Below, one piece after another: positions 11,202 through 50,341 of a stretch of 64,000 bases of DNA. Each line of letters begins with the position of its first letter. The first letter of the stretch is position 1. The stretch is from contig JAPPLB010000150.1 in the NCBI GenBank assembly GCA_028819575.1, positions 8,683 through 72,682 on the forward strand. The letters run 5' to 3'. Both the position numbers and the translations under genes were made by a program. The stretch comes from Bryobacterales bacterium (GTDB lineage Bacteria; Acidobacteriota; Terriglobia; Bryobacterales; UBA6623). Below the pieces are notes generated by a model. It saw only the letters and a program-made list of their open reading frames with translations. It made no database searches and had not been told where the DNA came from.

Positions 11202-11499
11202 CCTGCATTTCTCACCACCCGACGGCCCAAGCACGCGATAACAGGCCGTGATTCGTGACTCGTGATTCGTGAGCCCAAAACCCAGGCAGGCGTTACGACC
11301 GTCGCTCATGGGCGTCATTTGTTACGCTTGCGTGCCGTTCTCCATGGGGTAAAGGCCGTGTTGCGTGTCTCGTAACCCGAGGGCCGAAGGAGGCGATACG
11401 GCAAGTACGCCTGCGCACGCCTTTTCCTCCGCCCGGCTTGCGCCTCGTCCTGACGGCCCTCTCACGCACTTCGCCTCGCCACGTGGTGAGAAAGGCAGG
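11198..11499. mobile_element. full-length mosaic MITE-like element (302 bp), inverted orientation
   Basis: TIRs are TTAGCCTGCATTTCTCACCAC and GTGGTGAGAAAGGCAGG (1 mismatch). It carries internal heptads and module A. The left TIR contains the thpR stop codon. Confidence 0.85.
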
Positions 11500-11674
11500 A
11501 TAATCGTGATGCACAAAAAGTTTCACTGATCGGCGTCAATGGGCCGGCCGGCGAACTTCTTTTGCATGCATACTGCGACGAAGCGCAACGACAGCTTGTC
11601 GATCCGGCGGTCAGTTTCGACGAAGATCCGAAACGGAAACGCGTGCCGGGAGAACCCAGGGTCAAGGAGGCGAG

Positions 11675-12943: not shown

Positions 12944-13291
12944 CAGGGCGTGGCGAGGAAAGCTGGGCAATGCGTTCCCTCTAACGAACGAGCGGCCGCC
13001 GCTCTCAGAAGCCGATATAGGTGTCAGAGTACGGATCGTGCTCACCACAAGACAGCTCGCGCGAAATCGCCTGCCCATTGGCTGCTCCTCGATTGGGGCC
13101 ACCTAAAAAGCTCGGGCGAGAGCCGATCTGCTCCCGCTCTGAGCGTTGTGCCGAGAGTCGCGCCTGTTAACAGCTTTTCCGTGAATGCTGCTCGAGACTC
13201 CCTTCAACTCTCCGACGTACCTCGCTGTCCGATCATACACACGCGTTGAGGTCGGATCGGACATGATTTGCTAGAAAGTAGATCAACCGCC

Positions 13292-14215
13292 ATGACAATT
13301 CGTGAAATCCATCAATCCGGTCCATATCGGTATAGCTACTCGCCGTTTCATCCGCCCATCGCCACGGTCGAGCCGGGTGAGACAGTGGCGATTCATACCG
13401 TTGACGCTTTCGAGAACAAGATGACACCCGAGGTGCGGCATTTTGCCGATGTCTGCACCTACCCTTTCTTGAATCCGCAAACCGGACCGATCGTCGTCAA
13501 TGGAGCCGAGCCCGGCGACACGCTCGCCGTCAAGATCCACGAAATCACTCCAACCCGCGACCACGCCATAACGGGTACGATTCCGTACTTCGGCGGCCTT
13601 ACATCCACGAAGCTCGACCCGACATTGCAGCCGCCGCTGGAGGAGCAATGGCTGTACCTGCCTATCGACGATGCGGGTATTCACTTCGACGCGCAGAGAG
13701 TGATCCCCTATGAGCCGTTCCTGGGCACGATGGGCGTCGCACCGGAGATTGAAGCCGTCAATGCGCTGACGCCCGACTACTACGGCGGCAACATGGACTG
13801 CGTGGAGACACGGCCAGGCAATGAAGTGTGGTTCCCAGTACACGTCGACGGCGCACACTTCTTCACCGGCGACGCTCACGCCAGCCAGGGCGACGGAGAG
13901 CTTACAGGCGTGGCTCTGGAGATTCCGGCCCGCGTAACGGTGTCGTTCGAGGTGAAGAAAGGGTATGGCGTCAAATGGCCCCGCATCGTGAGCAGTGATT
14001 TTCTCATGGTTGCGGGCAGCGCTCGTCCTCTGGAGGCGGCTGCCCGAATCGCCTGGGTCGAGCTGATCGACTGGATGGTCAACGACTACGGCTTCGACCG
14101 CATGAAGGCCTACCATCTGCTAGGACAGGTAGGGCAAATGCGTCTCGGCAACATGGTCGATCCCAAATACACGATGGTCGCCAAATGCCCTCGGCGCTAC
14201 CTCGACCGCCTCTGA
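13292..14215 (+). CDS. acetamidase/formamidase family protein
   Basis: N-terminal pattern ...PPIATVEPGETVAIHTVDAFE... and ...GGNMDC... are typical of the FmdA/AmdA family. The ATG at 13292 is preferred over the TTG at 13268. Confidence 0.75.
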   Translation: MTIREIHQSGPYRYSYSPFHPPIATVEPGETVAIHTVDAFENKMTPEVRHFADVCTYPFLNPQTGPIVVNGAEPGDTLAVKIHEITPTRDHAITGTIPYFGGLTSTKLDPTLQPPLEEQWLYLPIDDAGIHFDAQRVIPYEPFLGTMGVAPEIEAVNALTPDYYGGNMDCVETRPGNEVWFPVHVDGAHFFTGDAHASQGDGELTGVALEIPARVTVSFEVKKGYGVKWPRIVSSDFLMVAGSARPLEAAARIAWVELIDWMVNDYGFDRMKAYHLLGQVGQMRLGNMVDPKYTMVAKCPRRYLDRL

Positions 14216-28898: not shown

Positions 28899-30332
28899 AT
28901 GCAGCGGATCAAGATACTGGCTGCCGTTTTAGGTTTGTTGTTTGCCACCACTGTCTGGTCTCAACAAGACGGAGACAGAGACGGCGGGGCCACCGGTAAC
29001 CCGCCAGGTGGGGCTACCGGCGGCGTGCCGGGTGGGACTGCTGGTGACATACCAGGAGGGGCTGCCGGTGGCTTGCCAGGTGGCCCGCCAGGTGGGGCTA
29101 TTGGCGGTGCGCCAGGGGGCACGACCGGTGGCAGGCCAGAGGGGGCTACCCGTGGCACAACCGGTGACGGTGACCGAGGTAGGGGAAACCGCCCAACCAC
29201 CGAAGATCAGCAGGAAGACATCATCGACCCCTACAGAGAGCAGCAAGAACAGCCGCAGCCATTTCCTCGATCGCAGAACGGGCACCTGCGTCTGCGGCGT
29301 CCGGTCATTCTCAGCGGCAAGGTCATGTTGGGAAACGGCATGACGCCTCCGGAGCCGGTGAGGATTTACGTGGAGTGCGATGGCCGGCGCATGACCACCG
29401 ACTATACCAATAGCAAGGGTGTCTTCAACGTCGATCTTAACAATCCTCAAAACACCTTTCTCGATGCGGGCGTCGGAGGTCCTTGGAAAGGTCACGGAGT
29501 CTGCGTCGACCGGTTTGGGCGAGTCAACCTGTTCGGTTGCCAGCTTTTCGCCGAGTTGGGCGGCTATCGAGCTGATCCGATTCAATTGGTTGCTCGTCGC
29601 AGCATCTTTGACAATCCCGACGTCGGAGCGATAGTCCTGCGACGCTTGGATGGTGTCGATGGTATGTCCATCAGTTACACCAGTCTGTCAGCCCCCGGGA
29701 AGGCCAAAAAAGCCTACGGCAAGGCATTCAGGGAAATGCAGAAGAGGGGACCGGACCTGCAAAAGGCCGAGAAGGAATTGGAGACGGCGGTGGGCTTGCA
29801 CTCCGAATACGCCGCGGCCTGGAACCTGCTGGGCCACGCTCGCCTGATGCAGGGCGACCGGGAACGCGGCCGGGCCGCGTTCGAAAAGGCTGTCGAAGCC
29901 GACCCGAAATTCCTGGATCCCTACCCCGCTCTCGCGCGTCTGGCGCTCGTCGAGGAGCGCTGGGATGATGGCCTGCAATGGTCGAATCAGCTTCTGCGGC
30001 TGAATCCCCACGTTGCGATTTCACATTACTATTCGGCCATTGCCAACTTTCGTTTAGGCCGCATGGAGGCTTCCAAGAAGTCGATGCTCGATCTTCAGGA
30101 GAAAAGCGCCGGCAGAGATTTTCCCCGGTCGCATCAGATCCTCGGTATGATCCATGCTGAACAGGGGCTCTACGAGCAGGCTGCCACATCCTATCGCGAC
30201 TATCTCGCGGTGCAGCCGGACGGGCCTTTCGCTTTACAGATCCAACGTCAACTCCGCGATTGGGAATTGCTGGGGGTGATCCGGAAACAGGAGACCGCCG
30301 CGGCGCCGACCGTCGCCGTCACCCAGGACTGA
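28899..30332 (+). CDS. secreted Gly-rich repeat / beta-sandwich / TPR protein, paralog 1 of 3
   Basis: Conserved start MQRIKIL plus signal peptide. About 70 aa of PGGxxGxx repeats, a CarboxypepD_reg-like unit (LSGKVMLGNGMTPPEPVRIYVECDG) and a C-terminal TPR region. A start 6 nt upstream is possible. Confidence 0.85.
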   Translation: MQRIKILAAVLGLLFATTVWSQQDGDRDGGATGNPPGGATGGVPGGTAGDIPGGAAGGLPGGPPGGAIGGAPGGTTGGRPEGATRGTTGDGDRGRGNRPTTEDQQEDIIDPYREQQEQPQPFPRSQNGHLRLRRPVILSGKVMLGNGMTPPEPVRIYVECDGRRMTTDYTNSKGVFNVDLNNPQNTFLDAGVGGPWKGHGVCVDRFGRVNLFGCQLFAELGGYRADPIQLVARRSIFDNPDVGAIVLRRLDGVDGMSISYTSLSAPGKAKKAYGKAFREMQKRGPDLQKAEKELETAVGLHSEYAAAWNLLGHARLMQGDRERGRAAFEKAVEADPKFLDPYPALARLALVEERWDDGLQWSNQLLRLNPHVAISHYYSAIANFRLGRMEASKKSMLDLQEKSAGRDFPRSHQILGMIHAEQGLYEQAATSYRDYLAVQPDGPFALQIQRQLRDWELLGVIRKQETAAAPTVAVTQD

Positions 30333-30377
30333 CCCGGATATCTCCCAAGCGGTAAGGAGGCGTGTGTGCGACGGTCC

Positions 30378-30510
30378 TCAGTTGGTGAGATATCCAGGCT
30401 CGGTTGATGACCTCGAACCGGTCGGGTTGCCACACATCCATCGCGTCGATCCCTCTCCCTGCAAGCGCGTCAGGTCGACTTCGGATCGTATTCGCCCCGG
30501 TACCGCAACC
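30378..30510. repeat. decayed copy of the VWA gene's 3' end and downstream spacer, carried in the tandem-duplication unit
   Basis: Aligns by eye with 33726-33860, for example ...GATCCCTCTCCCTGCAAGCGCGTCAGGTCGACTT... against ...GGTCCCTCTCCCTGCAGGTGCGTCAGGTTGACTT... Confidence 0.75.
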
Positions 30511-30621
30511 TTTTTGTTGTTGGCGACGTCGTACTGCGCTACCAAAGGCCTTGGTCGGAGGGGGTTTCTGTGAGTGCCTTACTGACAGTTGCAGCCTGAA
30601 TACCCGAAAGGGGGGATGATC

Positions 30622-31875
30622 ATGCAACGGATCAAGATTCTGGCTGCCGTTTTGGGCTTGTTGTTTGCTACGGCTGTCTGGTCTCAACAAGACGGCGGCA
30701 GAGGCAGTGGCGGCACGACCGGCGGCTCTGGCGGCACGACCGGTGGCGGTGGCCGAAGTACGGGAAACCTTCCAACCACCGGCGGTCAGCAGGGACGTAG
30801 TACCTACGACTCCTACCGACGGCAGGACTTGGACCTCCGCAGGCGCCCGTTTTACCTCAGCGGCAAGGTTGTGTTGGCGAACGGCATGACGCCTCCTGAG
30901 CCGGTGAAGGTTTACTTGGATTGCGACGGTCAGCGCCGGCCCGCCGGCTACACCAATTCCAAGGGTACCTTCAGGGTCGATCTCACCGATCGCAACACCC
31001 CCTTTGCCGATGCGAGCATGGGAGGGATGGGGCCACGGCGCGGATTCAGCAGCAGCGGCCTCGGACGAGTCACCCTGTTCGGTTGCCAGCTTCTCGCCGA
31101 GTTGGGCGGCTATCAAGCTGATCCGATTCCGTTTGGTAGTCGCAGCATCTTTGACAATCCCAATGTCGGAACGATGGTCCTGCGACGCTTGGATGGTGTT
31201 GAAGGTATGCCTATCAGTTTCACCAGTCTGTCAGCCCCCAATAAGGCCAGAAAAGCCTACGACAAGGCATTCAGGGAAATGCAGAAGAAAGAGCCGAACC
31301 TGCAAAAGGCCGAGAAGGAATTGGAGACGGTGGTGGGCTTGCACTCCGAATACGCCGCGGCCTGGAATATGCTGGGCCGCGTTCGCATGATGCAGGCCGA
31401 CCGGGAAGGCGGCCGGACCGCGTTCGAGAAGGCTGTCGAAGCCGACCCGAAATACCTCGATCCCTATCCCGATCTCGCACTTCTGGCGCTCACCGAGGAG
31501 CGCTGGGACGATGGCCTGCAGTGGTCGAATCAGCTTCTGCGGCTGAATCCCCACGTTGCGATTGCTCATTATTATTCGGCCATTGCAAACTTTTATTTAG
31601 GCCGGATGGAGGCTTCCAGGAAGTCGGTGCGAGAGCTCAAGGAGAAAAGCGCCGACGGATATTTTCCCCAGTCGCATCTGATCCTCGGCATGATCCATGC
31701 TCAACAGGGGCTCTACGAGCAGGCAGCCATATCCTTCCGCGACTATCTCACGGTGCAGCCGGACGGGCCCGTCGCTTCACAGATCCAACGTCAACTCCAC
31801 GATTGGGAAGTTCTGGGGAAGATCCGGAAACAGGAAGACCCCGGGGCGCCGACCGCGGCCATGCCCCGGAACTGA
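30622..31875 (+). CDS. secreted Gly-rich / beta-sandwich / TPR protein, paralog 2 of 3
   Basis: Same architecture as paralog 1 with a shorter Gly-rich tract. RBS AAAGGGGGG. The conserved upstream 120 nt is also present. Confidence 0.85.
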   Translation: MQRIKILAAVLGLLFATAVWSQQDGGRGSGGTTGGSGGTTGGGGRSTGNLPTTGGQQGRSTYDSYRRQDLDLRRRPFYLSGKVVLANGMTPPEPVKVYLDCDGQRRPAGYTNSKGTFRVDLTDRNTPFADASMGGMGPRRGFSSSGLGRVTLFGCQLLAELGGYQADPIPFGSRSIFDNPNVGTMVLRRLDGVEGMPISFTSLSAPNKARKAYDKAFREMQKKEPNLQKAEKELETVVGLHSEYAAAWNMLGRVRMMQADREGGRTAFEKAVEADPKYLDPYPDLALLALTEERWDDGLQWSNQLLRLNPHVAIAHYYSAIANFYLGRMEASRKSVRELKEKSADGYFPQSHLILGMIHAQQGLYEQAAISFRDYLTVQPDGPVASQIQRQLHDWEVLGKIRKQEDPGAPTAAMPRN

Positions 31876-31920
31876 CCCGGGTATCGCCCAAGCGCCGAGG
31901 AGGAGTGTCTGGGGCGATCC

Positions 31921-32053
31921 TCGGTTGGTGAGATGTCCAAGCTGGGCCAATGACCTCAAACCGGTCGGGTTGACACACATCTACTGTGCCGATCCCTCTC
32001 CCTGCAAGCGCGTCAGGTCGATTTCGGATAGTATTCGCCCCGGTCCCGCAACC
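31921..32053. repeat. second decayed copy of the VWA 3' end and spacer
   Basis: Collinear with 30378-30510 and 33726-33860. Confidence 0.75.
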
Positions 32054-32163
32054 TTTCTGTTGTTGGCGACGCCTTACTGCAAAACCGAAGGCCTTGGTCA
32101 CAGGGGTTTGCTGTGATAGCCTTACTGGCAGTTCCGGCCTGAATACCCGACAGGAGGGTGATC

Positions 32164-33477
32164 ATGCAACGAATCAGGATTCTGGCTACCGTTCTGGGTT
32201 TGTTGTTTACGACGGCTGTCTGGGCTCAACAGACAGGCGGCACTGGCGGTACCACCGGGGGCGCCACCGGTGGCACGACAGGTGGCGGTGGCCGAGGTAG
32301 TACGGGAAACCTCCCGACCACCGGCGGTCAGCAGGGGCGAACCAGCGACCCCTACGGACGGGAGCAACAGCAGATTCCCCAACCGGACTTCAGGCGCCCG
32401 CTGTATCTCAGCGGCAAGGTCGTGTTGGCGAACGGCATGCCGCCTCCGGAGCCGGTGAAGATTTATTTGGATTGCAACGGCCAGCGCCGGCCCGCCGGCT
32501 TCACCAATACCAAGGGCACCTTCAGCGTCGATCTTAACGATCGCAACAACCTCGCGTTTGCCGATGCGAGCGTCCAGGGAGCACCCGTTGGGATAGGGCA
32601 ACAAGGGGGCGGGGGCGGATTCGGCACTGTCGGAACCAACCTTTCTTCTCGCAGCGACGGCCTCGGTCGAGTCAACCTGTTCGGTTGTCAGCTTCTCGCC
32701 GAGTTGGGGGGCTATCAAGCTGACCCGGTTCCTCTGGGTACTCGCAGCGTCTTTGACAACCCCAACATCGGAACGATGGTCATGCAGCGCTTGGATGGAG
32801 TAGAAGGTTCGTCCATCAGTGTCACCAGTCTGTCAGCCCCCAAGAAGGCCAAGAAAGCCTACGACAAGGCCTTCAGGGAGATGCAGAAGAAGGAGCCGAA
32901 CCTGCAAAAGGCCAAAAAAGAGTTGGAGTCGGCGGTGGGTCTGCACTCCGAGTACGCTACGGCCTGGAACCTGCTGGGTCGCATTCGAATGATGCAGGAC
33001 GACCTCGAAGGAGGCCGGGCCGCGTTCGAGAAGGCTGTCGAAGCCGACCCGAAATTCCTGGATCCCTATCCCGCTCTCTCGCGTCTGGCGCTCACTGAGC
33101 AGCGCTGGGACGATGGCCTGCAGTGGTCGAATCAGCTTCTGCGGTTGAATCCCCACGCCTCGATGGCGCATTACTTTTCGGCCATTGCCAACTTCCGTTT
33201 AGGACGGATGGAGGCTTCCAAGAAGTCGGTGATCGAGCTCAAGGAGAAGAATGCCGACAGAGACTTTCCCCAGTCCCATCAGATCCTTGGCATGATCCAT
33301 GCTCAACAGGGGCTCTACGAGCAGGCGGCCACATCCTACCGCGACTATCTCACGGTGCAGCCGGACGGCCCCGCCGCTTCGCAGATCAAACGCCAGCTCC
33401 ACGAATGGGAAATTCTGGGGGTGATCCAGAAAAAGGAAGCCGCGGCGGCGCCGACAGCCGCCGTCCCCCAGAACTGA
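32164..33477 (+). CDS. secreted Gly-rich / beta-sandwich / TPR protein, paralog 3 of 3
   Basis: Same architecture as paralogs 1 and 2. RBS CAGGAGGG lies 5 nt before the ATG. Confidence 0.85.
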   Translation: MQRIRILATVLGLLFTTAVWAQQTGGTGGTTGGATGGTTGGGGRGSTGNLPTTGGQQGRTSDPYGREQQQIPQPDFRRPLYLSGKVVLANGMPPPEPVKIYLDCNGQRRPAGFTNTKGTFSVDLNDRNNLAFADASVQGAPVGIGQQGGGGGFGTVGTNLSSRSDGLGRVNLFGCQLLAELGGYQADPVPLGTRSVFDNPNIGTMVMQRLDGVEGSSISVTSLSAPKKAKKAYDKAFREMQKKEPNLQKAKKELESAVGLHSEYATAWNLLGRIRMMQDDLEGGRAAFEKAVEADPKFLDPYPALSRLALTEQRWDDGLQWSNQLLRLNPHASMAHYFSAIANFRLGRMEASKKSVIELKEKNADRDFPQSHQILGMIHAQQGLYEQAATSYRDYLTVQPDGPAASQIKRQLHEWEILGVIQKKEAAAAPTAAVPQN

Positions 33478-33512
33478 CCTGACTGCTCTCACGTGGCCAG
33501 TCGAGGTGCTTG

Positions 33513-33721
33513 CTAACCTGCATATCTCACCACGTGGCGAGACGAATTGCGTGAGAGGGTCGTCAGGACTAGGCACAAGCCGGGCGGAGGAAAAAGGCGC
33601 GAGCCGCTTGGCGCGCGCAGACGTACTTGAACAGTACGTTGAGCACGGCAAGCAAGCGTAACGAAGTCATGGCGGTCATACCGCGTACTTCGGCCGTCGG
33701 GTGGTGAGAAATGCAGGTTAG
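33513..33721. mobile_element. short (209 bp) mosaic MITE-like element with 21-bp TIRs
   Basis: TIRs are CTAACCTGCATATCTCACCAC and GTGGTGAGAAATGCAGGTTAG. It is absent from the two paralogous spacers. Confidence 0.9.
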
Positions 33722-34902: not shown

Positions 34903-35191
34903 TAGCCTGCATTTCTCACCACGTGGCGAGGCGAAGTGCGTGAGAGGGCCGTCAGGACGAGGCGCGAGCCGGGCGGAGGAAAAAGGCGTGAGCCAAGCGC
35001 ACTTGCCAAATCACTTCCTTCACCCCTCTTGTCACGAAACGCGGCCTTCCCGGTTCACTGGCCGTCAGACATTTCTTCTGGAGCGAACCAGACCCCCTCT
35101 CATGGTTTTCACGAATCACGAAACACGAAACACGAATCACGGCCTTTTTCTCGCGTGCTTCGACCGTCGGGTGGTGAGAAATGCAGGTTAG
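34903..35191. mobile_element. full-length mosaic MITE-like element (289 bp)
   Basis: Perfect 17-bp TIRs CCTGCATTTCTCACCAC / GTGGTGAGAAATGCAGG. Modules A, S and the heptad array are all present. Confidence 0.9.
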
Positions 35192-36174: not shown

Positions 36175-37443
36175 CTAGCGGCTGCTGCGCATCTCCTGCG
36201 CCAATGTTTTGATCTCGGTCAGATCCTGCAACATCTCGCTCCAGCCGTACCAGAGCGCGTAATCCGGATTGTTGTGAAACACGCCCTGAAACGCTCGCAT
36301 CCGGTGCTCCAGGTGCATCTTGAAGAGTCTTTGTTCGATCACCGACGGTGCGTCGTGGAAAGCCAGCAGGTCCGGGAAGTTGTACGCATAGTGGTCCGGC
36401 TTGCGCAGCACCCCGTCGCGGTAGAGGGTACTGACGATGCGGATCGCCTCGGCAAGCAGCCGGTCCGTTTCCCGGATCATCTCGTCGCCCTTCTCGAGTT
36501 CCGCTCGTACAAAATTTCCCGAGTGGCACTGCTCGCAAACACCGATCATGCGGTCGCGCTCCTTCTGCCAATCCTCTTGGGTCAGCCGGGCGACATCGGC
36601 TTGCTTGACGGCATCCAGGCGCGCGGTTGGATTTCCCTGCGGGTCCAGGACACCGAGCGCTTGGAGGATGGTGGTTCGATCGGCCGCCCACTGGGCGTCT
36701 TCCGGCATGGGCAATCGCACGGCCAGGAATCCCCAGGCTGTCCGCACGCCGTGATCCCCCTGCGGCATGTGGCACGTCTGGCAGGTGGGCGCCGCGGCCT
36801 GCTCCGGCAGCGTTCCGCTCTGCTTGAGCAGATGCCGAACGCCATGCTTGGACGAGGAATACATCTCCCACTGCGGATGGTCGATGCCCATGTGGCACGT
36901 CCGGCAAGCTTGTGGCTCCCGGGCCTCTTTGACGGAAAAGAGGTGGCGCGTATGGCAGGCGTCGCACGAGGCAAGGCCGAACATGACACCCTCGGCCTTC
37001 AACTGCCGGATCTCCTCCTCACTCTTGAGCCCGAGGCGGTGGCACCCTCCACAGCCCTTCATGCCTTCCGTGAGAGCCATCGGCAGCCAATGCGTCGTCG
37101 GCATGGCGTTCATGCTGGCCCAGGCCAGAGCGTGCTTGCCGCCTTCGAACTGCTCTGTCTGGATCGGATGGCAAGTCCCGCAAACATCCGGCGTCGCGGT
37201 CTTGACCAAAGCGACATTGTCCGCCGAGTCATGCTCGTCGCCGTGACATAGCGAGCAGTCCACACCCTTCTCGCTGTGCCGGCTCAGTTCCCAATCCGTG
37301 ACGATGCTCGGCGTCACGCTGCGGTGACAGTCGACGCAGTCCGATGAGCTGCGAGAGGTGTCTTCCCCGCCGCCGCACGCTGCCAGCGCCAGAACGGCCG
37401 GCAGTAGAAAGCATCTTCTCCGACGCGATCGTCTTGTTCTCAA
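36175..37443 (-). CDS. octaheme cytochrome c, hydroxylamine-oxidoreductase (HAO) family-like lipoprotein
   Basis: Eight CxxCH motifs (CVDCH, CSLCH, CGTCH, CGGCH, CDACH, CRTCH, CQTCH, CEQCH). Lipobox LALAAC. The start is placed at TTG 37443, although the ORF is open to 37701. Confidence 0.8.
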   Translation of the reverse strand: MRTRRSRRRRCFLLPAVLALAACGGGEDTSRSSSDCVDCHRSVTPSIVTDWELSRHSEKGVDCSLCHGDEHDSADNVALVKTATPDVCGTCHPIQTEQFEGGKHALAWASMNAMPTTHWLPMALTEGMKGCGGCHRLGLKSEEEIRQLKAEGVMFGLASCDACHTRHLFSVKEAREPQACRTCHMGIDHPQWEMYSSSKHGVRHLLKQSGTLPEQAAAPTCQTCHMPQGDHGVRTAWGFLAVRLPMPEDAQWAADRTTILQALGVLDPQGNPTARLDAVKQADVARLTQEDWQKERDRMIGVCEQCHSGNFVRAELEKGDEMIRETDRLLAEAIRIVSTLYRDGVLRKPDHYAYNFPDLLAFHDAPSVIEQRLFKMHLEHRMRAFQGVFHNNPDYALWYGWSEMLQDLTEIKTLAQEMRSSR

Positions 37444-37642
37444 CTGGTTGTGATGAACCCGCGGCCATTGCGGGAAGATGCATCCCTCAAGAAGACGTGC
37501 TCTGCAAATTCTGGTCGTCCGGGCGATGTGCTCCAAGCGCATTGACCTGTTCGAGCTCTCATTATATGGCCCGTTCCATTCCGGCCCTGATCGGCGCCCT
37601 GACAGCCCATGCGAAGGAAAAGTCCTGCCGCATCGTTCGTCG

Positions 37643-37669
37643 GCAGGCTGGAAGCCTGTGCTCCCAGGG
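37643..37669. repeat. REP-like 27-mer GCAGGCTGGAAGCCTGTGCTCCCAGGG
   Basis: 23 of 27 positions identical to 1227-1253. It abuts the truncation point of the DUF1156 stub. Confidence 0.6.
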
Positions 37670-37768
37670 ATGTCCGTTCCGGATCGACTTCTCCCGCACA
37701 TCGCGCCGCGACACTTCAGCGATGGGAAAGTCCACCTCGGTCAGCCTCTTGCGCTCCTTGGGGATCAC
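37667..37768 (-). pseudogene. N-terminal stub of a DUF1156-type putative DNA methylase
   Basis: (M)IPKERKRLTEVDFPIAEVSRRDVREKSIRNGHP matches the DUF1156 N-terminus. The expected [11 protein letters not shown] is missing. GTGA overlap with the HEPN gene's stop. Confidence 0.6.
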
Positions 37769-38157
37769 AAACGCTCCTCGGCCCAGCGAACCACGGCTTC
37801 GGCGATCTCGATTGCCTTCGCATATTGTTGCTCAGTGACAGGCTGGTCGATCCCCGGGTAGCGAGTGATCGTAGCGAATTGGGTAAGCTTCCTGGCCTGG
37901 CCGACGTCATCCGGGATCGCCTCGCCTGCATCTTTGAGCATGGAAAGCAAACGTGCCAGGTCATGCACATACGGGAAGTCAATGCCACGCTTGATCATCA
38001 GCGCCTTGATAGCCTTCTCGGCGGCCTGTTGTGCGTCGAAGCACAGATCCTCCAGGTAGACGCCGGGGATACGGTTCACCGCCATGGCCAGATTGCTGCG
38101 GGAGCGGTTCAACCATTCCCGGGGATCGTCCGCTGGAAAACGTTCAGGCGGCTTCAT
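37765..38157 (-). CDS. HEPN domain toxin-like protein (of a HEPN/MNT pair)
   Basis: ...AQQAAEKAIKALMIKRGIDFPYVHDLARLL...ITRYPG is typical of PF05168-type HEPN. It overlaps the upstream MNT gene by 14 nt. Confidence 0.85.
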   Translation of the reverse strand: MKPPERFPADDPREWLNRSRSNLAMAVNRIPGVYLEDLCFDAQQAAEKAIKALMIKRGIDFPYVHDLARLLSMLKDAGEAIPDDVGQARKLTQFATITRYPGIDQPVTEQQYAKAIEIAEAVVRWAEERL

Positions 38158-38473
38158 AGATCACCCGGCCTTCCCGCAGTGCAGGTTTGATGATCACCGC
38201 GTGGCTATCCCTGTACCGCTCCACGTCGCCAGGCGTGACCACAACCGCGTCGATCGCTACACCGATGCCGTCCAGGTTCATGTATATCTCGCCCGTCAGT
38301 TCCAGAACGTCGGCGCCCTCCTTGATGATGAGCAAGTCCACGTCGCTGTGCGGTCCCATCTTGCCCCGGGCAGCGGACCCGAAGAGAATGATCTTCTCCG
38401 GCCGGGCCACCTCTACGATGCGCCGGATGATTTCGTCCAACGTCTCTTGATCAAGTATCCTTCGGGCCCTCAT
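38144..38473 (-). CDS. minimal nucleotidyltransferase (MNT) antitoxin-like protein
   Basis: ILFGSAARGKMGPHSDVDLLI carries the GS-x9-12-DxD nucleotidyltransferase motif. 109 aa. Confidence 0.88.
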   Translation of the reverse strand: MRARRILDQETLDEIIRRIVEVARPEKIILFGSAARGKMGPHSDVDLLIIKEGADVLELTGEIYMNLDGIGVAIDAVVVTPGDVERYRDSHAVIIKPALREGRVIYEAA

Positions 38474-38529
38474 TTGTCAAATCCTCAATGAATGTCAGGA
38501 TGATCCGCTGCATTCCGCCGTCCGGACTC

Positions 38530-38683
38530 ATCGCGCTTGTCCACCTGTGAGGCCGCCGCGCCCGCCGCAGGTGCAGCTCGACGGCTGCCCGCGACGGATC
38601 GACTTCTCCAGCGCCGCGTGCCGCGACACTTCGGAGATCGGAAAGTCCACCTCGCCCAGCCGCTTGCACTCCTTGTGGATCAT
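38530..38683 (-). pseudogene. second, frameshifted N-terminal stub of a DUF1156-type methylase
   Basis: MIHKECKRLGEVDFPISEVSRHAALEKSIRRGQP is followed, after a frame change, by ...VELHLRRARRP (compare [11 protein letters not shown]). Confidence 0.6.
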
Positions 38684-38698
38684 GGTTCTTCATTTTGT

Positions 38699-38914
38699 CT
38701 ACGAACGAGGCGGAACGATGATCTTACATCTGGGGCCGCTGGATTGGCCCAGCTTTCTGCCCAACGTCACTAGCGGGCAATCGAGCGCCTCGGCCAACAC
38801 CAGTTCCGGGCCGGCCGGATAGCCCTCGGTGACCGCGGATTCCGCCCACTTCCCCTCCTTCCCCGAGTCGACCAGGGCTGCGGCCAGCACGGACGCATCG
38901 ACGACCACCGTCAC
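38699..38914 (-). pseudogene. vapC: internally deleted PIN-domain VapC toxin
   Basis: GTG overlaps the antitoxin stop (GTGA). VTVVVDASVLAAALVDS is the PIN N-terminus and ...ALDCPLVTL... is the PIN C-terminus, but only 71 codons remain. Confidence 0.65.
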
Positions 38915-39189
38915 CGCCGGTCCATATCGCGGGCGCTGAGAATGTTGGCGGGTCGGACACGGGTTTCCGCCGCCGCCTTGCGCTCCCGCACTCCTTGCAG
39001 CCAAGTGTCGAGAGAAGGACGGGAGGCGATGCGTTCCAACTCGGAGCGGAGAAATTCCTGCATCGATTGGCGTTGCAACGCCGCCCGCGCCGCAAGCTCG
39101 TCGCGCACTTCCTGGGGGACTCCTCTGATGGTGATCTGTACCGGTATGAACGCATTATGCCATATTAATATTGATTTGGGGCCAGACAC
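38911..39189 (-). CDS. vapB: ribbon-helix-helix (FitA/VapB-like) antitoxin
   Basis: ...PVQITIRGVPQEVRDELAARAALQRQSMQEFLRSELERIA is a typical RHH plasmid-stability antitoxin. The N-terminal extension and GTG start are uncertain. Confidence 0.75.
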   Translation of the reverse strand: MSGPKSILIWHNAFIPVQITIRGVPQEVRDELAARAALQRQSMQEFLRSELERIASRPSLDTWLQGVRERKAAAETRVRPANILSARDMDRR

Positions 39190-39191
39190 CT

Positions 39192-40484
39192 ATGGACGAA
39201 GATGCTTTAACTGCCGCACTGAAGAATGTGCTCATCCAAGTTGATGACGTCAGCATCGCCACTCGTGATGTCAGCATCCGCACACAGAGTGGATATCTAT
39301 TAACAGAAGGCCCTCTGTTGGCGGAAATGCGAGAGTCGAATATTGACCACGAGCTTGCAAAGATTATTTTTCCCATTTTGGAAGTGCAGCCAGAATTCAA
39401 AGACAAAGCACTGATGATCAACACGGGTGGCGGATCCATGGGATTCCACAGTCAATTTGTTGCAACCGTGTTAGTTCGCGAGGCACGGCGTCGGAAATCG
39501 GCAAAGGATGCTGTCAGGTGGCTAAAAAAAGTGCTAGAGACCGACAGTGCGGAGATGTTGGTTATTCAGACTCTGTGGGGCATATCTCCGAAAAACCGGA
39601 TTTCCGTCTGGAAAGACGTAGAGTTACTTCCGTTCGAATCTCTGCCCCCTTCTCGTCAGAAGGAGCAAATCACAAATGTTCTCGATTGGCCTTACAATTT
39701 GCGCCTTCCAACACTTTTTTTTGCACATGAACCTCCTACTGCAGCGCTAATTTCGAAGACGGAAGTCCGTCCCTTTCTGATTGACAAATCCATAGAAGAA
39801 AACTCAACGGATAGAGACATCCGTAAAGCCTACCCTCCGTTGGATGACATCAGACTCTGCCTGGGTCTGGAAGGTCCATCGATCATTATTGCTGGACCAA
39901 GTTGGTTCCAATACGTCGATGCAGACTTGGAAGCGGCCCTTATCGCCACGAGTAGCAGCTATGGCAGTCAGGAGATATTACCTTTTGGTCTTCTTATAGA
40001 TTCTTTAGAGACGACAACTAACCTGCAAGCTATTGTGCGAGGATACATGGCATTGGAACAGAGAGTAAAAAATCAGGTTCATATCGCTCTTGAGAGGCTC
40101 CATCAAGCTCTTATCCGCACGGATCCGGCCGCACGTGCACTTGAAGTATCAATCGCGTTAGAAACATTGCTGATTGATGACCCTGGTGAGCATACATTCA
40201 AGATCTCGTATCGTGCGTCTCTGCTTATTTCTGACACGGTTGAGGAACGGATGGAAGCCAGGGCAATAATTCAGGCTGCTTATAGCATGCGGAGTGCTCT
40301 TGTGCATAGCGGTCAGACTAAGTCCATGGTTAAGATCAAAGGTCAGGGAGAGAAGTCAGCGGAAGAAGTCGCTAGTAGTGCTGTCACAATCACTGCGCTC
40401 GTGATCAAGCGAATCATAATGCGAGGTAGTATCCCTGAATGGAATCGATTTGAGTTATCAGACGGTAGAATATGGAAGTCCTAG
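39192..40484 (+). CDS. low-GC orphan protein with unknown N-terminal domain and C-terminal HEPN-like domain carrying Rx4H (candidate ApeA-like defence RNase)
   Basis: Compositional break at the island edges. AAYSMRSALVHSG contains R-x4-H at 40290-40307, inside a helical C-terminal region of about 140 aa. ATG 39192 is preferred over TTG 39171. Confidence 0.6.
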   Translation: MDEDALTAALKNVLIQVDDVSIATRDVSIRTQSGYLLTEGPLLAEMRESNIDHELAKIIFPILEVQPEFKDKALMINTGGGSMGFHSQFVATVLVREARRRKSAKDAVRWLKKVLETDSAEMLVIQTLWGISPKNRISVWKDVELLPFESLPPSRQKEQITNVLDWPYNLRLPTLFFAHEPPTAALISKTEVRPFLIDKSIEENSTDRDIRKAYPPLDDIRLCLGLEGPSIIIAGPSWFQYVDADLEAALIATSSSYGSQEILPFGLLIDSLETTTNLQAIVRGYMALEQRVKNQVHIALERLHQALIRTDPAARALEVSIALETLLIDDPGEHTFKISYRASLLISDTVEERMEARAIIQAAYSMRSALVHSGQTKSMVKIKGQGEKSAEEVASSAVTITALVIKRIIMRGSIPEWNRFELSDGRIWKS

Positions 40485-40486
40485 CA

Positions 40487-40717
40487 TTAGCGGACCCTCC
40501 ATCTGACGAGTTTGGTATGTTCTGCTGAACAGTTACATGTGCAGATGGGGTAGTCCAGAAGAGGGGTTCCCCCGGCCTTTTCCAGAAGGGCAAGAAGGCA
40601 GTTGAGGTCGTGCACGAGCGGGAAGTCGATATAACCTGCGGCGAAGCTACTGATCAGGCCGAGCATCCGCATGAACAGATCCCAGAGGGACTGGATTTCG
40701 TAGGTGGCCATGGTCAA
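40487..40717 (-). pseudogene. chimeric relic: duplicated 3' fragment of the SSS transporter fused to a HEPN gene fragment
   Basis: MATYEIQSLWDLFMRMLGL and FAAGY copy residues of the 40826-43378 product. IDFPLVHDLNCLLALLEKAGG resembles IDFPYVHDLARLLSMLKDAGE of the HEPN gene. Confidence 0.7.
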
Positions 40718-40727
40718 TCTGAGGAGC

Positions 40728-40775
40728 GCAGGCTACTAGCCTGCCTGAGAAGAGTGCGGGCAAGATGCCCGCGCA
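40728..40775 (-). terminator. two adjacent GC-rich hairpins downstream of the transporter operon (REP-like or terminator)
   Basis: GCAGGCTA-C-TAGCCTGC at 40728-40744 and GCGGGC-AAGAT-GCCCGC at 40757-40775. There is no U-tract. Confidence 0.4.
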
Positions 40776-40825
40776 AGGAGAGCAGAAGCCGCCGGCGCGG
40801 GGTTGCACAACCGCCCGGTCTGCGA

Positions 40826-43378
40826 TCAGATTCGTTCCGGCGGGATTTGCGTATAGACGGTCAGGCCCTTGAGGCCTTTGGGGCGGTCTGGGAGGAGGAG
40901 GCTGGCGAGGTAGCCAGCGGCGAAGCAGGTGAGCAGGCCGATGGCCGCGTACAGGAAGAAGCTGACGGCGGTATGGGTCTGGACCCAGTAGATGACTGCG
41001 GCGCTGATGACGGCCCCGATGAGCGCCCCTCGTCCGTTGGCGCGGCGGGTGAACATGCCGACCGCGAAGAGTCCGGCCATGCCGCTGCTGAGCAGGCCGA
41101 GCATCCGCATGAACAGATCCCACAGCGACTGGATCTCGTAGGTGGCCATGGTCGCGGCGGTGACGGTAGCGATCAGGCCGAGTCCGGCGGTCAGCCACCG
41201 CGCCAGGCGCAGGCGGACGGCATCCGTGGATTCAGGTCGGAAACGGGCGTAGAAATCCGTCACGACGGCGGTCGAGACGCTGTTCAGGCCGCTGTCGAGA
41301 GTGGACATCGAAGCGGCGAACAGGGCGGCGATGACGATCCCGGTGATGCCGGAGGGCAATTGCTGTGAGATGAAGTGGGGGAAGATCGAGTCCGTGGGCA
41401 GGTTGGGGCTCAGGAGTTCGGGCGTGAGCTTGTAGAAGACGTAGAGCGCAGTGCCGAGCAGGAACCAGACGATAGTTTCCGGCAGCACGATGGCGGCGTT
41501 CATCCAGATGGAATCGGCGGCGCTTTTTTCGTCACGCGTCGTGAGATAGCGTTGGACGACAACCTGGTCGGAGGTGTAGGTGACCAGGTTGATGAAGAGG
41601 TTTCCGATGACGAGGACCCATATCGTACTGGTCGTGTAGTCCCAGCCCCAATGGATGACTTTGAATTTGTCATCGGCCATGCCGAGCGAGAAGATCGTCG
41701 ACAATCCTCCGTCGACGCCGAAAATCATGATCACCAGGCACAACAGGCCGCCGCCGAGCAGGACGATGGCTTGCAGCACGTCCGTCCAGACGACGGCCTC
41801 GATGCCGCCGAGAACGGTGTAGAGCGTGCTGAGAACGCCCATCACGACAATGCAGACGTAGACGTTCATGCCGGTGACGGCGGAGAGGGCCATCGCCGGC
41901 AGAAACAGGACGATCGCCATGCGGCCGAGTTGAAAGAGGATGAACGCGGCGCTGGCGTAGAGGCGGGTCGCGAGGTTGAAGCGCCGCTCCAGGTATTCGT
42001 AGGCGCTGGTGAGGTTGAGGCGGCGAAAGAACGGCAGATAGAAGTAGACCACCACCGGCGTGATGAGCATGAAGGCGAACGTGTTGACGAAGTAGGCCCA
42101 GTCGGTGGCGTAGACCTTGGCTGGAGCCGCCATGAAGGTGATGGCGCTGAGTTGGGTTCCGAAGAGGCTGATGCCGGCCGCCCACCAGGGGATGCGGCGG
42201 CCGGCCAGGAAGTAGTCGGCGGTGGTTTTCTCGCGGCGGGAGAAGTAGACGCCCATCCCGATGAGCATCGCGAGGTATGCGCCGAGGCAGACGTAGTCGA
42301 GCGTGGTGAAGCCGCTGGGCTGATGGCGGGTTTCGAGGGCAAGCACGTGCGGGGAGCGGTGGCCGGGGCGGTCTTCGCCGGAGGCGATGACGATGCGGCC
42401 GTTCCAGCGCGTTGCGGAGGTTGTGACGAGCGCTTCGGTCATCTCGCCGAGTTCGGTCCAGGTGTCGGTGATGGTGTGGTAGGCGAGTACGGTCTTGGGG
42501 AAGCCGGGATGGTCGTCGCCCAGTCCCTGCGCGCGGAAGAAGAGCTCGCCGTCGTCACCGCTGAAGATGAGGATGTGGCTCGGACCCTCGGTGATGGCTG
42601 AGGCGGCGACGACGGGGTGCGGAACGTCGGCGACCTGCTGCCATCCGGCTTCGGGGCGATAGCGGTATGCGTCGGTCAGGAAACGGCGGGTAGTCGAGCC
42701 GTCCTCGGCGGTGACGAGCTCGGCGCCGCTGAAAACGTAGATCGCGCCATCCTGCGCCGCGGCGGCGGGAAGGATGCGAGCGGGGCCGGGCCAGGGGTCG
42801 AGAACTTCCCAGACGGATTCGGGATCGCCGAGGTCGAGCCGCCAGAAGTTGTTCATCGCGCGGGTGGAGTCGGGGGCTTGCTGGCCGCCGGCGATATAGA
42901 TCGATGTGCCGAGCAGGGCGGCGCTGGTCATGGCGCAGGCTTCAGGCAGGTCGGGAAGTTGTCGTTGATGGAGAGTTCCATCCTGCCATTGGAGAAGCCG
43001 GACGTCGCGGTAATGGCGTTGGGCATCGCCGCCGCCGAGAAGGATGAACCCTTCTTCTGTCGAAACGCTCCCGCCGTAGGCCAGCGGATGCTCGAGCTGG
43101 AAGTTGGACAGCCAGTCATCGGAGCCCGGCTCGAGGATGTATACCTCGCGCCGCCACTGCTTGGTCCCGCCCTGAAATGGGGAGATGGGGAAGTTCGAGC
43201 CGCCGGCGACCACGAGCGCCTCATTGGATACGCCGACGAAAGGCCCGCCGAGGCCGAGGGGCGTGGGGAGGTCTGGGAGGAGAGACCACTGGAGGGGCGT
43301 CTCATGTGCTTCGTTCGCGGTTGCCGGGAGCGCCCCAGCGATCAGGAAGAGTATGAGGCCGACGGCGGTGCGTTTCAT
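40826..43378 (-). CDS. fusion protein: periplasmic six-bladed Kelch/NanM-like (sialic acid mutarotase family) domain plus sodium:solute symporter (SSS)
   Basis: Signal peptide. Six Kelch-like blades (LVVAGGSNF, FILLGGGDA, IYIAGGQQA, IYVFSGAEL, ILIFSGDDG, IVIASGED). This is followed by about 500 aa of 13-14 TM SSS core (GRRIPWWAAGISLFGTQLSAITFM). Confidence 0.85.
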   Translation of the reverse strand: MKRTAVGLILFLIAGALPATANEAHETPLQWSLLPDLPTPLGLGGPFVGVSNEALVVAGGSNFPISPFQGGTKQWRREVYILEPGSDDWLSNFQLEHPLAYGGSVSTEEGFILLGGGDAQRHYRDVRLLQWQDGTLHQRQLPDLPEACAMTSAALLGTSIYIAGGQQAPDSTRAMNNFWRLDLGDPESVWEVLDPWPGPARILPAAAAQDGAIYVFSGAELVTAEDGSTTRRFLTDAYRYRPEAGWQQVADVPHPVVAASAITEGPSHILIFSGDDGELFFRAQGLGDDHPGFPKTVLAYHTITDTWTELGEMTEALVTTSATRWNGRIVIASGEDRPGHRSPHVLALETRHQPSGFTTLDYVCLGAYLAMLIGMGVYFSRREKTTADYFLAGRRIPWWAAGISLFGTQLSAITFMAAPAKVYATDWAYFVNTFAFMLITPVVVYFYLPFFRRLNLTSAYEYLERRFNLATRLYASAAFILFQLGRMAIVLFLPAMALSAVTGMNVYVCIVVMGVLSTLYTVLGGIEAVVWTDVLQAIVLLGGGLLCLVIMIFGVDGGLSTIFSLGMADDKFKVIHWGWDYTTSTIWVLVIGNLFINLVTYTSDQVVVQRYLTTRDEKSAADSIWMNAAIVLPETIVWFLLGTALYVFYKLTPELLSPNLPTDSIFPHFISQQLPSGITGIVIAALFAASMSTLDSGLNSVSTAVVTDFYARFRPESTDAVRLRLARWLTAGLGLIATVTAATMATYEIQSLWDLFMRMLGLLSSGMAGLFAVGMFTRRANGRGALIGAVISAAVIYWVQTHTAVSFFLYAAIGLLTCFAAGYLASLLLPDRPKGLKGLTVYTQIPPERI

Positions 43379-49673: not shown

Positions 49674-49925
49674 ATGCGTGAAGTACGAACTACCGAGGCC
49701 AAGTCGCGCCTGGCGGAACTCCTGCGGGCGGTCGAGTACGGCGAGACGTTTGCAATCACCCGCCACGGCAGGCCGATTGCGCATCTGGTTCCGGCAAGCG
49801 ACCAGCGTAAAGCGTCACAGAAAGAAGCGGTGGAGCGCTTCCGAGCCCACCGTCGGCAGTGGCGCTGCATTGGGATGACGCCCGAGGAGATCCTCGCGTC
49901 GATTCACGAAGGACGTCGCTGGTGA
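49674..49925 (+). CDS. vapB: Phd/YefM-type antitoxin (VapB partner)
   Basis: MREVRTTEAKSRLAELLRAVEYGETFAITRHGRPIAHLVP is the canonical Phd/YefM N-terminus. Its stop overlaps the toxin's GTG. Confidence 0.88.
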   Translation: MREVRTTEAKSRLAELLRAVEYGETFAITRHGRPIAHLVPASDQRKASQKEAVERFRAHRRQWRCIGMTPEEILASIHEGRRW

Positions 49926-50341
49926 GCCGTTTCGTGCTCGACGCATCCGTCGCGTCGGCGTGGCTCTTTGACGACGAAAACGATCCGCGGTCGAACGAGG
50001 CGTTAGCGCGCCTTGAAAGTGAAGTGGCGCTGGTGCCGCAGTTTTGGCACATCGAAGTCAGGAGCGCACTGCTCGGCGCAGAACGCCGAGGCCGCATACG
50101 AGTGGATGAAGTCGGCGAACGATTGCGCAGGCTGGGTGAGTTGCCGATCAGGACGGACATGGAACCGGACTTCAGAGTCGCTTTTACGCTGGCCCGAACA
50201 CATGGACTTTCCATGTACGATGCGGTGTATCTGGAGTTGGCTCAACGGTCGGGGGCGCCTCTTGCGACACTGGACCAGGCGCTGGCGCGCGCAGCCGTTG
50301 CTGCGGGGCGTCAGTTGATTGAGCCGCTCACCGAGCTGTGA
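49922..50341 (+). CDS. vapC: PIN-domain ribonuclease toxin VapC
   Basis: VLDASVASAWLFDDE...YDAVYLELAQRSGAPLATLD carries the PIN acidic residues. GTGA overlap with the antitoxin. Confidence 0.88.
   Translation: MSRFVLDASVASAWLFDDENDPRSNEALARLESEVALVPQFWHIEVRSALLGAERRGRIRVDEVGERLRRLGELPIRTDMEPDFRVAFTLARTHGLSMYDAVYLELAQRSGAPLATLDQALARAAVAAGRQLIEPLTEL

Follow-up and report, generated by a model that had tools for sequence, protein, structure and literature searches.

Within a 64,000-nt stretch of a Bryobacterales contig (JAPPLB010000150.1; the whole stretch is hereafter called the window), the spacer between a transporter gene and a multihaem cytochrome gene holds an islet of toxin-antitoxin (TA) genes and gene fragments. 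We conclude that this spacer is probably the remnant of one helicase-methylase-ATPase (Hma) phage-defence system, with TA cassettes embedded in it, that has since decayed. In PMC12839542, Hma is equated with Type-1 DUF499-centred BREX-related (BR) systems, and auxiliary HEPN, minimal nucleotidyltransferase (MNT)-HEPN, PIN, and Schlafen effectors are described as embedded in BREX/BR core loci. The observations behind our conclusion are homologies, relics in relatives, recurrence of the gene layout, and signatures of selection. Families were called with Pfam and PADLOC profiles, relics were placed by tblastn with canonical Hma proteins, and loci of relatives or from metagenomes carry L-numbers (L006, L009, L133, etc.).

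Methylase and helicase relics in the islet and its relatives

The islet lies between a NanM/Kelch-sodium:solute symporter fusion of 850 aa on its left border (40826 to 43378, minus strand; Pfam SSF 3e-49, NANM 4e-37) and a conserved multihaem cytochrome gene on its right border (36175 to 37317, minus strand; 380 aa as called). The transporter is 92-97% identical in Bryobacterales relatives and the cytochrome gene 94-98% identical across four relatives. Read on the minus strand from the transporter toward the cytochrome, a spacer of ~100 bp is followed by a chimeric open reading frame (ORF), a plus-strand gene of 430 aa, a ribbon-helix-helix (RHH) antitoxin gene, a 71-codon VapC remnant, and a methylase stub (stub 1); after ~75 nt of spacer come an MNT gene, an HEPN gene, and a second methylase stub (stub 2, minus strand). 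The first-pass annotation of this DNA omitted the largest gene of the islet, the 430-aa plus-strand ORF, and the low-GC block that carries it; the RHH antitoxin, MNT, and HEPN genes that it listed are borne out by Pfam matches.

Both stubs correspond to the beginning of a DUF1156 (HmaB) methylase gene. Stub 1 (38550 to 38683, minus strand; codons 1 to ~45) starts 15 nt past the VapC stop. Near 38577, the Thr codon in HPS-T-LHL has lost 1 nt, and WW is changed to RR. After correction of this frameshift, it matches Pfam DUF1156 at 28.9 bits (cut-off 24) and positions 5-47 of PADLOC HmaB at E=1e-8. Stub 2 (37667 to 37768, minus strand; codons 1-34) overlaps the HEPN gene by GTGA and matches PADLOC HmaB at E=2e-4 and a consensus N-terminal peptide by tblastn at E=3e-13; on its own it has no Pfam match. 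The stubs are identical at 24 of 34 residues and at ~85% of DNA positions, close to the two-thirds protein identity estimated at first pass, and the assignment to DUF1156 methylase N-termini made there holds for both, as do the 15-nt distance and the frameshift of stub 1. Two ~1000-aa HmaB proteins match the window by tblastn at residues 1-36 and 1-34 only, so the window has no full-length methylase or N6-methyltransferase core. Likewise, tblastn found no HmaA helicase in the window and no HmaC DUF499 ATPase in the window or in the islet of any relative.

Since the source is metagenome assembled and GC content changes sharply in the region, we considered whether the frameshift, deletions, and chimeric ORF could be assembly or binning artefacts. 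Three assemblies that together represent two samples (ENA ERZ23495530, Logan SRR10996925, and ERZ23495471) give the islet sequence with 100% identity; the last, from the second sample, has a contig spanning 37317-38938 with stub 1 included. The stub-1 frameshift also occurs in a different genome, L009, and the chimeric ORF and the 430-aa gene also occur in L166. The artefact reading, which the first-pass annotation had named as a threat to its claims, is refuted as far as assemblies can show; we give it practically no chance.

The core genes missing from the window survive in pieces elsewhere. Relatives were retrieved with the transporter protein (metagenome-assembled genomes of close Bryobacterales, phylum Acidobacteriota), and two more contigs were retrieved with the 430-aa and HEPN proteins; with the window, they present seven haplotypes. 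L010 has an unrelated 257-bp spacer between transporter and cytochrome. L007 has a helicase fragment (HmaA residues 247-344; 70% identity, 2e-40), a possible DUF932 fragment (E=0.03), and a 7-codon micro-stub. L009 has helicase (HmaA residues 214-342) and possible DUF932 fragments, an intact RHH-VapC pair, stub 1 with the frameshift of the window, MNT-HEPN, and a stub 2 that is split by a miniature inverted-repeat transposable element (MITE), so that its HmaB relic consists of residues 1-34, the MITE, and then residues 47-94 and 228-252. The same split methylase relic is found in L006, together with several MITEs, a helicase C-terminal fragment (HmaA residues 1047-1113), a stub 1 with a 37-nt deletion, and MNT-HEPN. 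L172 resembles L009, including an HmaA fragment (within residues 214-344), but has the MNT-HEPN allele of the window and a stub 2 followed by a MITE. L166 has the chimeric ORF, the 430-aa gene, RHH, an intact VapC, and a stub 1 with a 1-nt deletion of its own at codon 10; its MNT-HEPN and stub 2 are deleted. The window itself is like L166 in its left part, like L009 in its stub-1 lesion, and like L172 in its MNT-HEPN allele, a mixture indicating that islet segments recombined between lineages. In the relatives, HmaA and HmaB relics stand in canonical order and orientation, with the helicase upstream and the methylase downstream. In line with the first-pass claim that a DUF1156-methylase defence system was destroyed here, these are the relics of such a system.

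Since L006 and L009 still have pieces of the methylase body, we identify stub 2 as the head of the former resident methylase. In relatives, the MITE splits the methylase relic directly after ...GHP. At the end of stub 2, the window reads GGACATCCC followed directly by TGGGAGC, whereas L172 reads GGACATCCC, the MITE, and then ACACCCC followed by TGGGAGC, and the longer methylase relic of L009 ends in GGGAACATCCC followed by TGGGAGC. Comparison of these junctions indicates that a deletion between short imperfect (ACATCCC-like) repeats removed the MITE and the remaining methylase relic from the window. Only stub 2 marks a gene that stood at this place; stubs 1 and 2 are not two equivalent decapitated genes, as which they had been presented at first pass.

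An alternative reading, and the one favored by the first-pass annotation, is that the spacer is an integration hot-spot into which VapBC, MNT-HEPN, and two DUF1156 systems inserted independently and then decayed. The site does vary: close relatives have seven haplotypes, one of them empty; at least one block, the low-GC block, is clearly a separate arrival; MITEs inserted repeatedly, several of them in the L006 islet; and in the possible DUF932 fragment (E=0.03-0.13) there is a hint of mobile-element origin. Against independent insertion, the spacer has no integrase, att site, or target duplication, and the order of helicase relic, cassettes, and methylase relic is that of a single Hma operon.

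Several other ideas about the haplotypes were discarded. The DUF932 assignment of the L007 and L009 fragment has E values of 0.03-0.13 only. Loss of MNT-HEPN from L166 by stub-to-stub recombination was rejected, since the junction is a CAAGCG microhomology between the stub-1 tail and the methylase relic. The rule that TA modules always outlive their system was rejected as well, since L166 lost MNT-HEPN and VapBC is dead in the window. Separately, we note that the micro-stub LIPKECK (7 codons; 19 nt identical to the L009 stub start) follows the possible DUF932 fragment at L007 13140-13165, L009 ~13150-13175, and L172 4630-4650, where it is joined to hairpin-like sequence resembling that upstream of the cytochrome operon.

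Intact Hma loci and the helicase-methylase junction

The reconstructed stub 2 of L009, used as a query, returned 80 metagenomic loci, which were thus chosen for stub similarity; the match is mostly to residues 1-95 of a methylase of ~1000 aa, with 60-75% identity. In the canonical locus, the stop codon of an SNF2/NOV_C helicase gene (~1150 aa) overlaps the start of the methylase gene, and a DUF499 ATPase gene lies downstream of the methylase (PADLOC HmaA 4e-176, HmaB 2e-110, and HmaC 3e-94). In L133, which is intact, the helicase 3' end is followed by MNT (61% identical), HEPN (61%), and a 1010-aa methylase that overlaps the HEPN stop by 4 nt, the same stop/start overlap as that between HEPN and stub 2 in the window. 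The islet resembles Hma/Type-1 BR systems in that both stubs match the HmaB N-terminus and the HmaA/HmaB fragments of relatives are in canonical order and orientation, but the window is without a functional core gene and holds a relic, not a system.

Because the relic order matches one operon and L133 has an intact counterpart with the same overlap, the TA pairs were most likely passengers inside the Hma operon and not independent serial inserts. The HEPN/methylase 4-nt overlap, being the native junction of intact L133, thus speaks against independent insertion, as does the occurrence of a stub, a cassette, and a methylase in this order inside intact Hma operons elsewhere, which means that two stubs need not imply two systems here. 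We therefore regard the hot-spot reading as unlikely, although its premise of a variable site stands, and return to a single decayed Hma locus with embedded cassettes.

A further observation concerns L173 (5700-6443), where a methylase stub of 18 codons (MIARECKRLAEVDFPIAD) comes after MNT-HEPN (HEPN 82% identical to that of the window) and overlaps it by 4 nt. L173 is without Hma core genes but with AlbA_2 and AAA_15 genes as in Hma slots, and it may be another decayed Hma locus.

The place occupied by the TA pairs, between helicase and methylase, is filled in many loci. In 55 loci, a helicase C-terminus precedes the methylase; the gap between the two measures -4 to 41 nt in 11 of these loci and 278-7295 bp in the other 44. 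The 72 ORFs in these gaps include 12 AAA_15/AAA_21 ATPases, which also match OLD, GajA, AriA, AbiL, and HEC-01 models. Besides these OLD-, Gabija-, and PARIS-like ATPases, UvrD helicases, OLD-type TOPRIM, Fic, RmuC, SIR2, RAMP, patatin, KTSC, and YhcG proteins are present, and the last slot gene often overlaps the methylase start by 4 nt. Most close relatives of this Hma subfamily hold extra defence genes between helicase and methylase, often translationally coupled to the methylase and sometimes separated by chimeric core relics. Stubs also accompany intact methylases: L124 has helicase, stub, AAA ATPase, and methylase, in that order; in L162 and L093, the stub is joined to a helicase tail and precedes a UvrD-like gene and the methylase; and in L088, a similarly fused stub precedes KTSC, an OLD-like ATPase, and the methylase. 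The L162 stub is exactly identical to the resident methylase over its first 44 nt and divergent beyond, the pattern expected from a crossover inside conserved sequence. Used as a query in a protein search, the L162 chimera yielded ~30 clusters of 83-154 aa with a methylase head and a helicase (NOV_C) tail (proteins P0054-P0089), ~20 of which are 126-131 aa long with ~55% identity. Many share the joint ...ARRPLASSRA(V/S)LL followed directly by ..ERRVAEDR.DC(F/Y)WLYVV. L169, L170, and L171 run from the helicase through a Fic cassette, a chimera (at 9001-9381, 9001-9387, and 4086-4472, respectively), and a PHP-AAA plus AlbA_2 cassette to the methylase, and L170 and L171 retain stop/start overlaps on both sides of the chimera.

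These arrangements led us to read stub 1 as a duplicated 5' "linker" between the VapBC and MNT-HEPN cassettes. We infer that such stubs are scars, left either when Hma loci recombined with each other or when a circular cassette integrated via the methylase 5' end, two routes that the data do not separate. In the former case, cassettes would have been exchanged or stacked between Hma loci by recombination at methylase 5' and helicase 3' ends, leaving a duplicated methylase head before the incoming cassette. More broadly, and tentatively, we suggest that the helicase-methylase junction of Hma/Type-1 BR loci might be a dedicated, integrase-free slot for stacking cassettes, in which the highly conserved hmaB start (first ~50-170 nt) and hmaA end (last ~200 nt) would serve as recombination anchors that let accessory defence and TA cassettes swap or stack between loci; a methylase-head or methylase-head::helicase-tail linker would be left per event, and cassettes could outlive the core, as here and in L173. 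This generalization is rather less secure than the reading of the islet itself.

We also considered whether stubs and chimeras are instead maintained as functional elements, such as adaptor or decoy proteins, translational-coupling leaders, or recombination anchors under selection. The arrangement stub-MNT-HEPN-stub is kept in four genomes, length is conserved at 126-131 aa in the ~20 chimera clusters with ~55% identity, and overlaps are retained on both chimera sides in L170 and L171. However, stub 1 has been disabled independently by one 1-nt deletion in the window and L009, by another in L166, and by 37 nt in L006; the WWARRP motif has decayed in the window as well as in many chimeras; stub 2 is MITE-split or truncated; and length conservation is biased, since only open ORFs enter the protein database. 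Maintained function thus appears improbable, more so than the hot-spot reading.

For the decayed Hma locus, we infer the following order of events and recombination mechanism. An Hma system would first have stood between the transporter and cytochrome operons, on their strand. Two cassettes would then have become embedded between helicase and methylase: VapBC with a methylase 5' stub (stub 1), and MNT-HEPN overlapping the methylase start (stub 2). The core genes would have been lost piecemeal through microhomology deletions and MITE insertion, islet haplotypes would have recombined between lineages, and a foreign low-GC block with the 430-aa HEPN-type gene would have replaced the helicase relics.

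Several points weigh against this reconstruction. None of the relatives has an intact Hma gene here or an HmaC relic, so that the full system is deduced from fragments and gene order. The 257-bp spacer of L010 is unrelated to the islet ends, and no clean insertion boundary or target duplication is demonstrable. The duplication of 70 nt of the transporter and its fusion to an HEPN fragment, described below, are not explained by decay of an Hma locus. Stub 1 is without the helicase-tail part of most chimeric linkers elsewhere, and its origin may differ from theirs. The slot occupancy of 44/55 (80%) is rough and covers one subfamily of loci chosen for stub similarity, some of whose helicase "ends" are relics. 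Finally, the functionality of MNT-HEPN and of the 430-aa gene is judged from intact ORFs and substitution ratios only. The reconstruction of an empty site by alignment with related genomes, as proposed at first pass, was tried with L010 and was not possible, since its spacer is unrelated; the comparison itself yielded the seven haplotypes.

The islet is thus a decayed Hma/BR-1 locus of a known kind, and the helicase-methylase slot with its linker scars is a modestly novel by-product. Term searches of PMC12839542 returned no helicase/methylase slot, no translational coupling of the slot's last gene, and no duplicated methylase-head linkers. The nesting recalls PrrC in the EcoprrI type Ic restriction-modification (R-M) operon and other effectors nested in R-M/BREX loci (PMC3710099), where an accessory toxin-type gene likewise lies inside a modification-based defence operon, presumably as a back-up; here, in contrast, several cassettes share one slot, core-gene relics lie between them, and passengers outlast the host system. 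By analogy only, the ordered stacking of small, promoter-poor defence or TA cassettes beside a conserved gene resembles integron cassette arrays, but the Hma slot is without integrase or attC, and its joints are fragments of neighbouring core genes, which indicates homologous or illegitimate recombination. The islet itself represents routine defence-island turnover and ordinary gene decay. Its seven haplotypes form a well-resolved fossil series in which a large modification-based defence system comes apart through microhomology deletions and MITEs, whereas its small embedded modules survive and swap alleles. If confirmed by a full survey, the slot would provide a simple sequence signature for new accessory defence genes and would suggest a recombination route to layered defence operons without dedicated recombinases.

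The TA pairs and the 430-aa HEPN-type gene

Of the two TA pairs, MNT-HEPN is intact. The MNT gene (38144 to 38473, minus strand; 109 aa) matches Pfam Polbeta (1e-11) and NTP_transf_2 (1.5e-10) and has a visible GSx10DxD motif; the HEPN gene (37765 to 38157, minus strand; 130 aa) matches PF05168 at 1e-27. Both matches are full-length. The HEPN gene shares 14 nt with MNT and 4 nt (GTGA) with stub 2. Nearly all of 3838 HEPN homologues are 129-134 aa long. Relative to L009, the ratio of nonsynonymous to synonymous substitution rates (dN/dS) is 0.12 for HEPN and 0.31 for MNT, and the pair is probably functional and under purifying selection. Synonymous divergence (dS) from L009 is 1.9 for HEPN versus 0.095 for the transporter. 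Sliding identity to L009/L006 falls to 50-82% across a tract at 37800-38350 (minus strand) that takes in the 3' two-thirds of MNT and nearly the whole of HEPN, against 92-98% in its flanks, and L172 has the window-type allele at 95.9% identity. We interpret this divergence as allele replacement across the toxin and the C-terminal part of MNT. In their adjoining, overlapping genes, typical sizes (109 and 130 aa), and GS...DxD motif in MNT, the two genes resemble MNT-HEPN TA pairs (HepT/MntA type VII; COG2250/COG1708-type). They differ in that the HEPN protein belongs to PF05168 and, in its 130 aa, has no arginine with a histidine 5-7 residues later; the Rx4-6H RNase motif is thus not present, and a HepT-like RNase-toxin mechanism cannot be assumed. 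They differ also in being embedded in, and outlasting, an Hma operon.

In contrast to MNT-HEPN, the VapBC pair of the window is dead: VapC has a 186-nt deletion and the antitoxin has lost its ATG. The RHH (FitA/VapB-like) antitoxin gene (38911 to 39147, minus strand; Pfam FitA-like_RHH E=8e-8) has ATA in place of the canonical ATG of L009 and L166 (39145-39147). Counted from the in-frame GTG found 14 codons farther upstream, at 39189, the gene spans 38911-39189. The VapC (PIN) pseudogene of 71 codons (38699 to 38914, minus strand) overlaps the RHH gene by GTGA, and its 71-aa product has no PIN match at E<=1. Intact PIN genes of 133-140 aa occur in L009, L166, and L172, and the L009 copy matches PIN at 3.6e-11. 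Compared with these, and as the internal deletion reported at first pass implied, the window lost 186 nt (62 codons) in frame between TTGGCCGAGGC and TTGGCTGAGGC; the deletion lies between 11-nt imperfect direct repeats, with the junction near 38787-38798. The module has the layout of VapBC/FitAB type II TA systems, an RHH antitoxin followed by a PIN toxin with GTGA overlap, and is intact in L009, L166, and L172, but in the window the toxin lacks 62 codons and the antitoxin its ATG. VapB, VapC, and both stubs are decaying pseudogenes in the window, as is, probably, the chimeric ORF.

The 430-aa gene (39192 to 40484, plus strand) is intact and lies in a low-GC block (47-49% GC versus 60-68% around it) that is clearly a separate, later arrival. 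Its protein has 53 homologue clusters, the NCBI name "HEPN domain-containing protein," and one homologue named "Apea-like HEPN" (JGI). In 34 sequences of the family, R367-x4-H372 is invariant. The structure model (predicted local distance difference test score, 86) has a C-terminal helical domain, with R367 and H372 in a predicted helix at 350-373, and an uncharacterised N-terminal region of ~270 aa predicted to be mixed alpha/beta. Homologues of the gene adjoin an MmeI-type R-M gene or transposases. None of the 34 family members matches any Pfam HEPN model or PADLOC ApeA at E<=0.1, and the 430-aa protein has no PDB match by sequence or Foldseek. With 83% aa identity and a dN/dS of 0.27 relative to the L166 copy, the gene is probably functional and under purifying selection. 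We predict that it encodes an HEPN-superfamily RNase, which would make it a candidate single-gene abortive-infection defence.

ApeA provides HEPN defence from a single gene, as a tRNA anticodon nuclease whose activators are deoxydinucleotides (bioRxiv 10.64898/2026.01.26.701840). The 430-aa protein shares with it the single-gene form, a C-terminal helical domain with invariant Rx4H, a large N-terminal region of unknown function, homologues in defence-island contexts, and the name given to one homologue by JGI. It is shorter, at 430 aa versus the at least 583 residues implied by the Ec2ApeA domain range given in the same preprint, its N-terminal region has a predicted mixed alpha/beta fold against the predominantly helical one reported for ApeA, and it differs also in the lack of Pfam or PADLOC matches among the 34 family members and of a Foldseek match in the PDB. 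It is a candidate ApeA-like protein in architecture, with membership in ApeA unproven. With ~50 clusters and no Pfam or PADLOC profile, the family is a reasonable candidate for experimental testing. A TTG start for this gene gave no match on look-up, and the form on record is the ATG at 39192. Between the divergent RHH and 430-aa genes (~39150-39200), the window is without 57 nt that are present in L166; ~45 nt remain between the ATG of the 430-aa gene and the original position of the RHH start codon.

Junctions, repeats, and neighbouring sequence

The chimeric ORF (40487 to 40717, minus strand; 76 codons) joins a duplicate of transporter sequence to an HEPN fragment, as stated at first pass. 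A blastn self-match shows that 40646-40715 is a 93% copy (92.9% over 70 nt) of transporter codons at 41084-41153 (minus strand), and 40571-40630 matches HEPN residues 59-78. The HEPN part is nearer the L009/L006-type allele than the window's own (35 nt at 88.6%; protein 80% versus 65%). The additional transporter-derived piece "FAAGY" proposed at first pass matches at 12/15 nt, indistinguishable from chance. The ORF has no family match in Pfam or PADLOC, and its dN/dS against the L166 copy is 0.53, from few sites. The 70-nt repeats were rejected as att sites, given only ~370 bp between the copies, no integrase nearby, and fusion of the second copy to an HEPN fragment. The left junction of the block specific to the window and L166 is a palindrome, CAGGCTAGTAGCCTG (40721 to 40735, read directly from the sequence), at which homology to L007 and L009 stops; its right half and the next bases resemble a truncated MITE terminal repeat (13/17 nt).

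Two observations concern the adjacent transporter end. The stretch at 40800-40999, comprising the last ~200 nt of the transporter gene and sequence after its stop, is 87.5% identical to L166 versus 93-99% for the remainder of the gene, and it adjoins, downstream, the transporter segment that is duplicated. Past the transporter stop, L007 (12545-12625) and L009 (~12553-12640) have a ~60-nt insertion with a ~20-nt direct repeat (ACGGAACGAATCTGATCGCA) on each side, and the window is without this insertion.

At the other end of the islet, the methylase relic is fused to conserved sequence upstream of the cytochrome operon (37624 to 37669, minus strand), which is kept in L006, L009, L166, and L172 and consists of a 24-nt motif, CCCTGGGAGCACAGGCTTCCAGCC, with a 6-bp hairpin, followed by a second hairpin, CCTGCCG-N10-CGGCAGG. 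A 27-nt REP-like (repetitive extragenic palindromic) element had been placed here at first pass. The hairpin motif is indeed present, but the 24-nt motif (CCCTGGGNGCNCNGGCTTCCAGCC) has only two copies in the window, on the same strand at 1230-1253 and 37646-37669 (versus 0 expected), and the longer 35-mer and the second hairpin each occur there only once. The two copies differ by a compensatory A-T to G-C stem change, and the stem resembles joined MITE termini. A REP element as the cause of the stub-2 cut was dropped, since only the 24-nt core recurs, once, and the cut is the deletion between ACATCCC-like repeats. The MITE family (~185-290 bp; terminal inverted repeats AGCCTGCATTTCTCACCAC) has 13 terminal-repeat matches in the window versus 0.01 expected. 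Copies lie at 33515-33719, 34904-35189, and 11200-11501, among others, in the window; at 14960-15141 in L009; at 6494-6677 in L172; and at 12551-12734, 13231-13418, and 14805-15000 in L006. A promoter and terminator scan of the islet gave signal no better than shuffled sequence.

Farther out, a second TA pair in the window, a PhdYeFM antitoxin with a PIN toxin, lies at 49674-50341 on the plus strand (as called in L001, 14542-15209). Cross-matches of relatives suggest tandem paralogous units of ~1.5 kb, with MITE copies between them, on the downstream side of the cytochrome operon at ~30000-33500.

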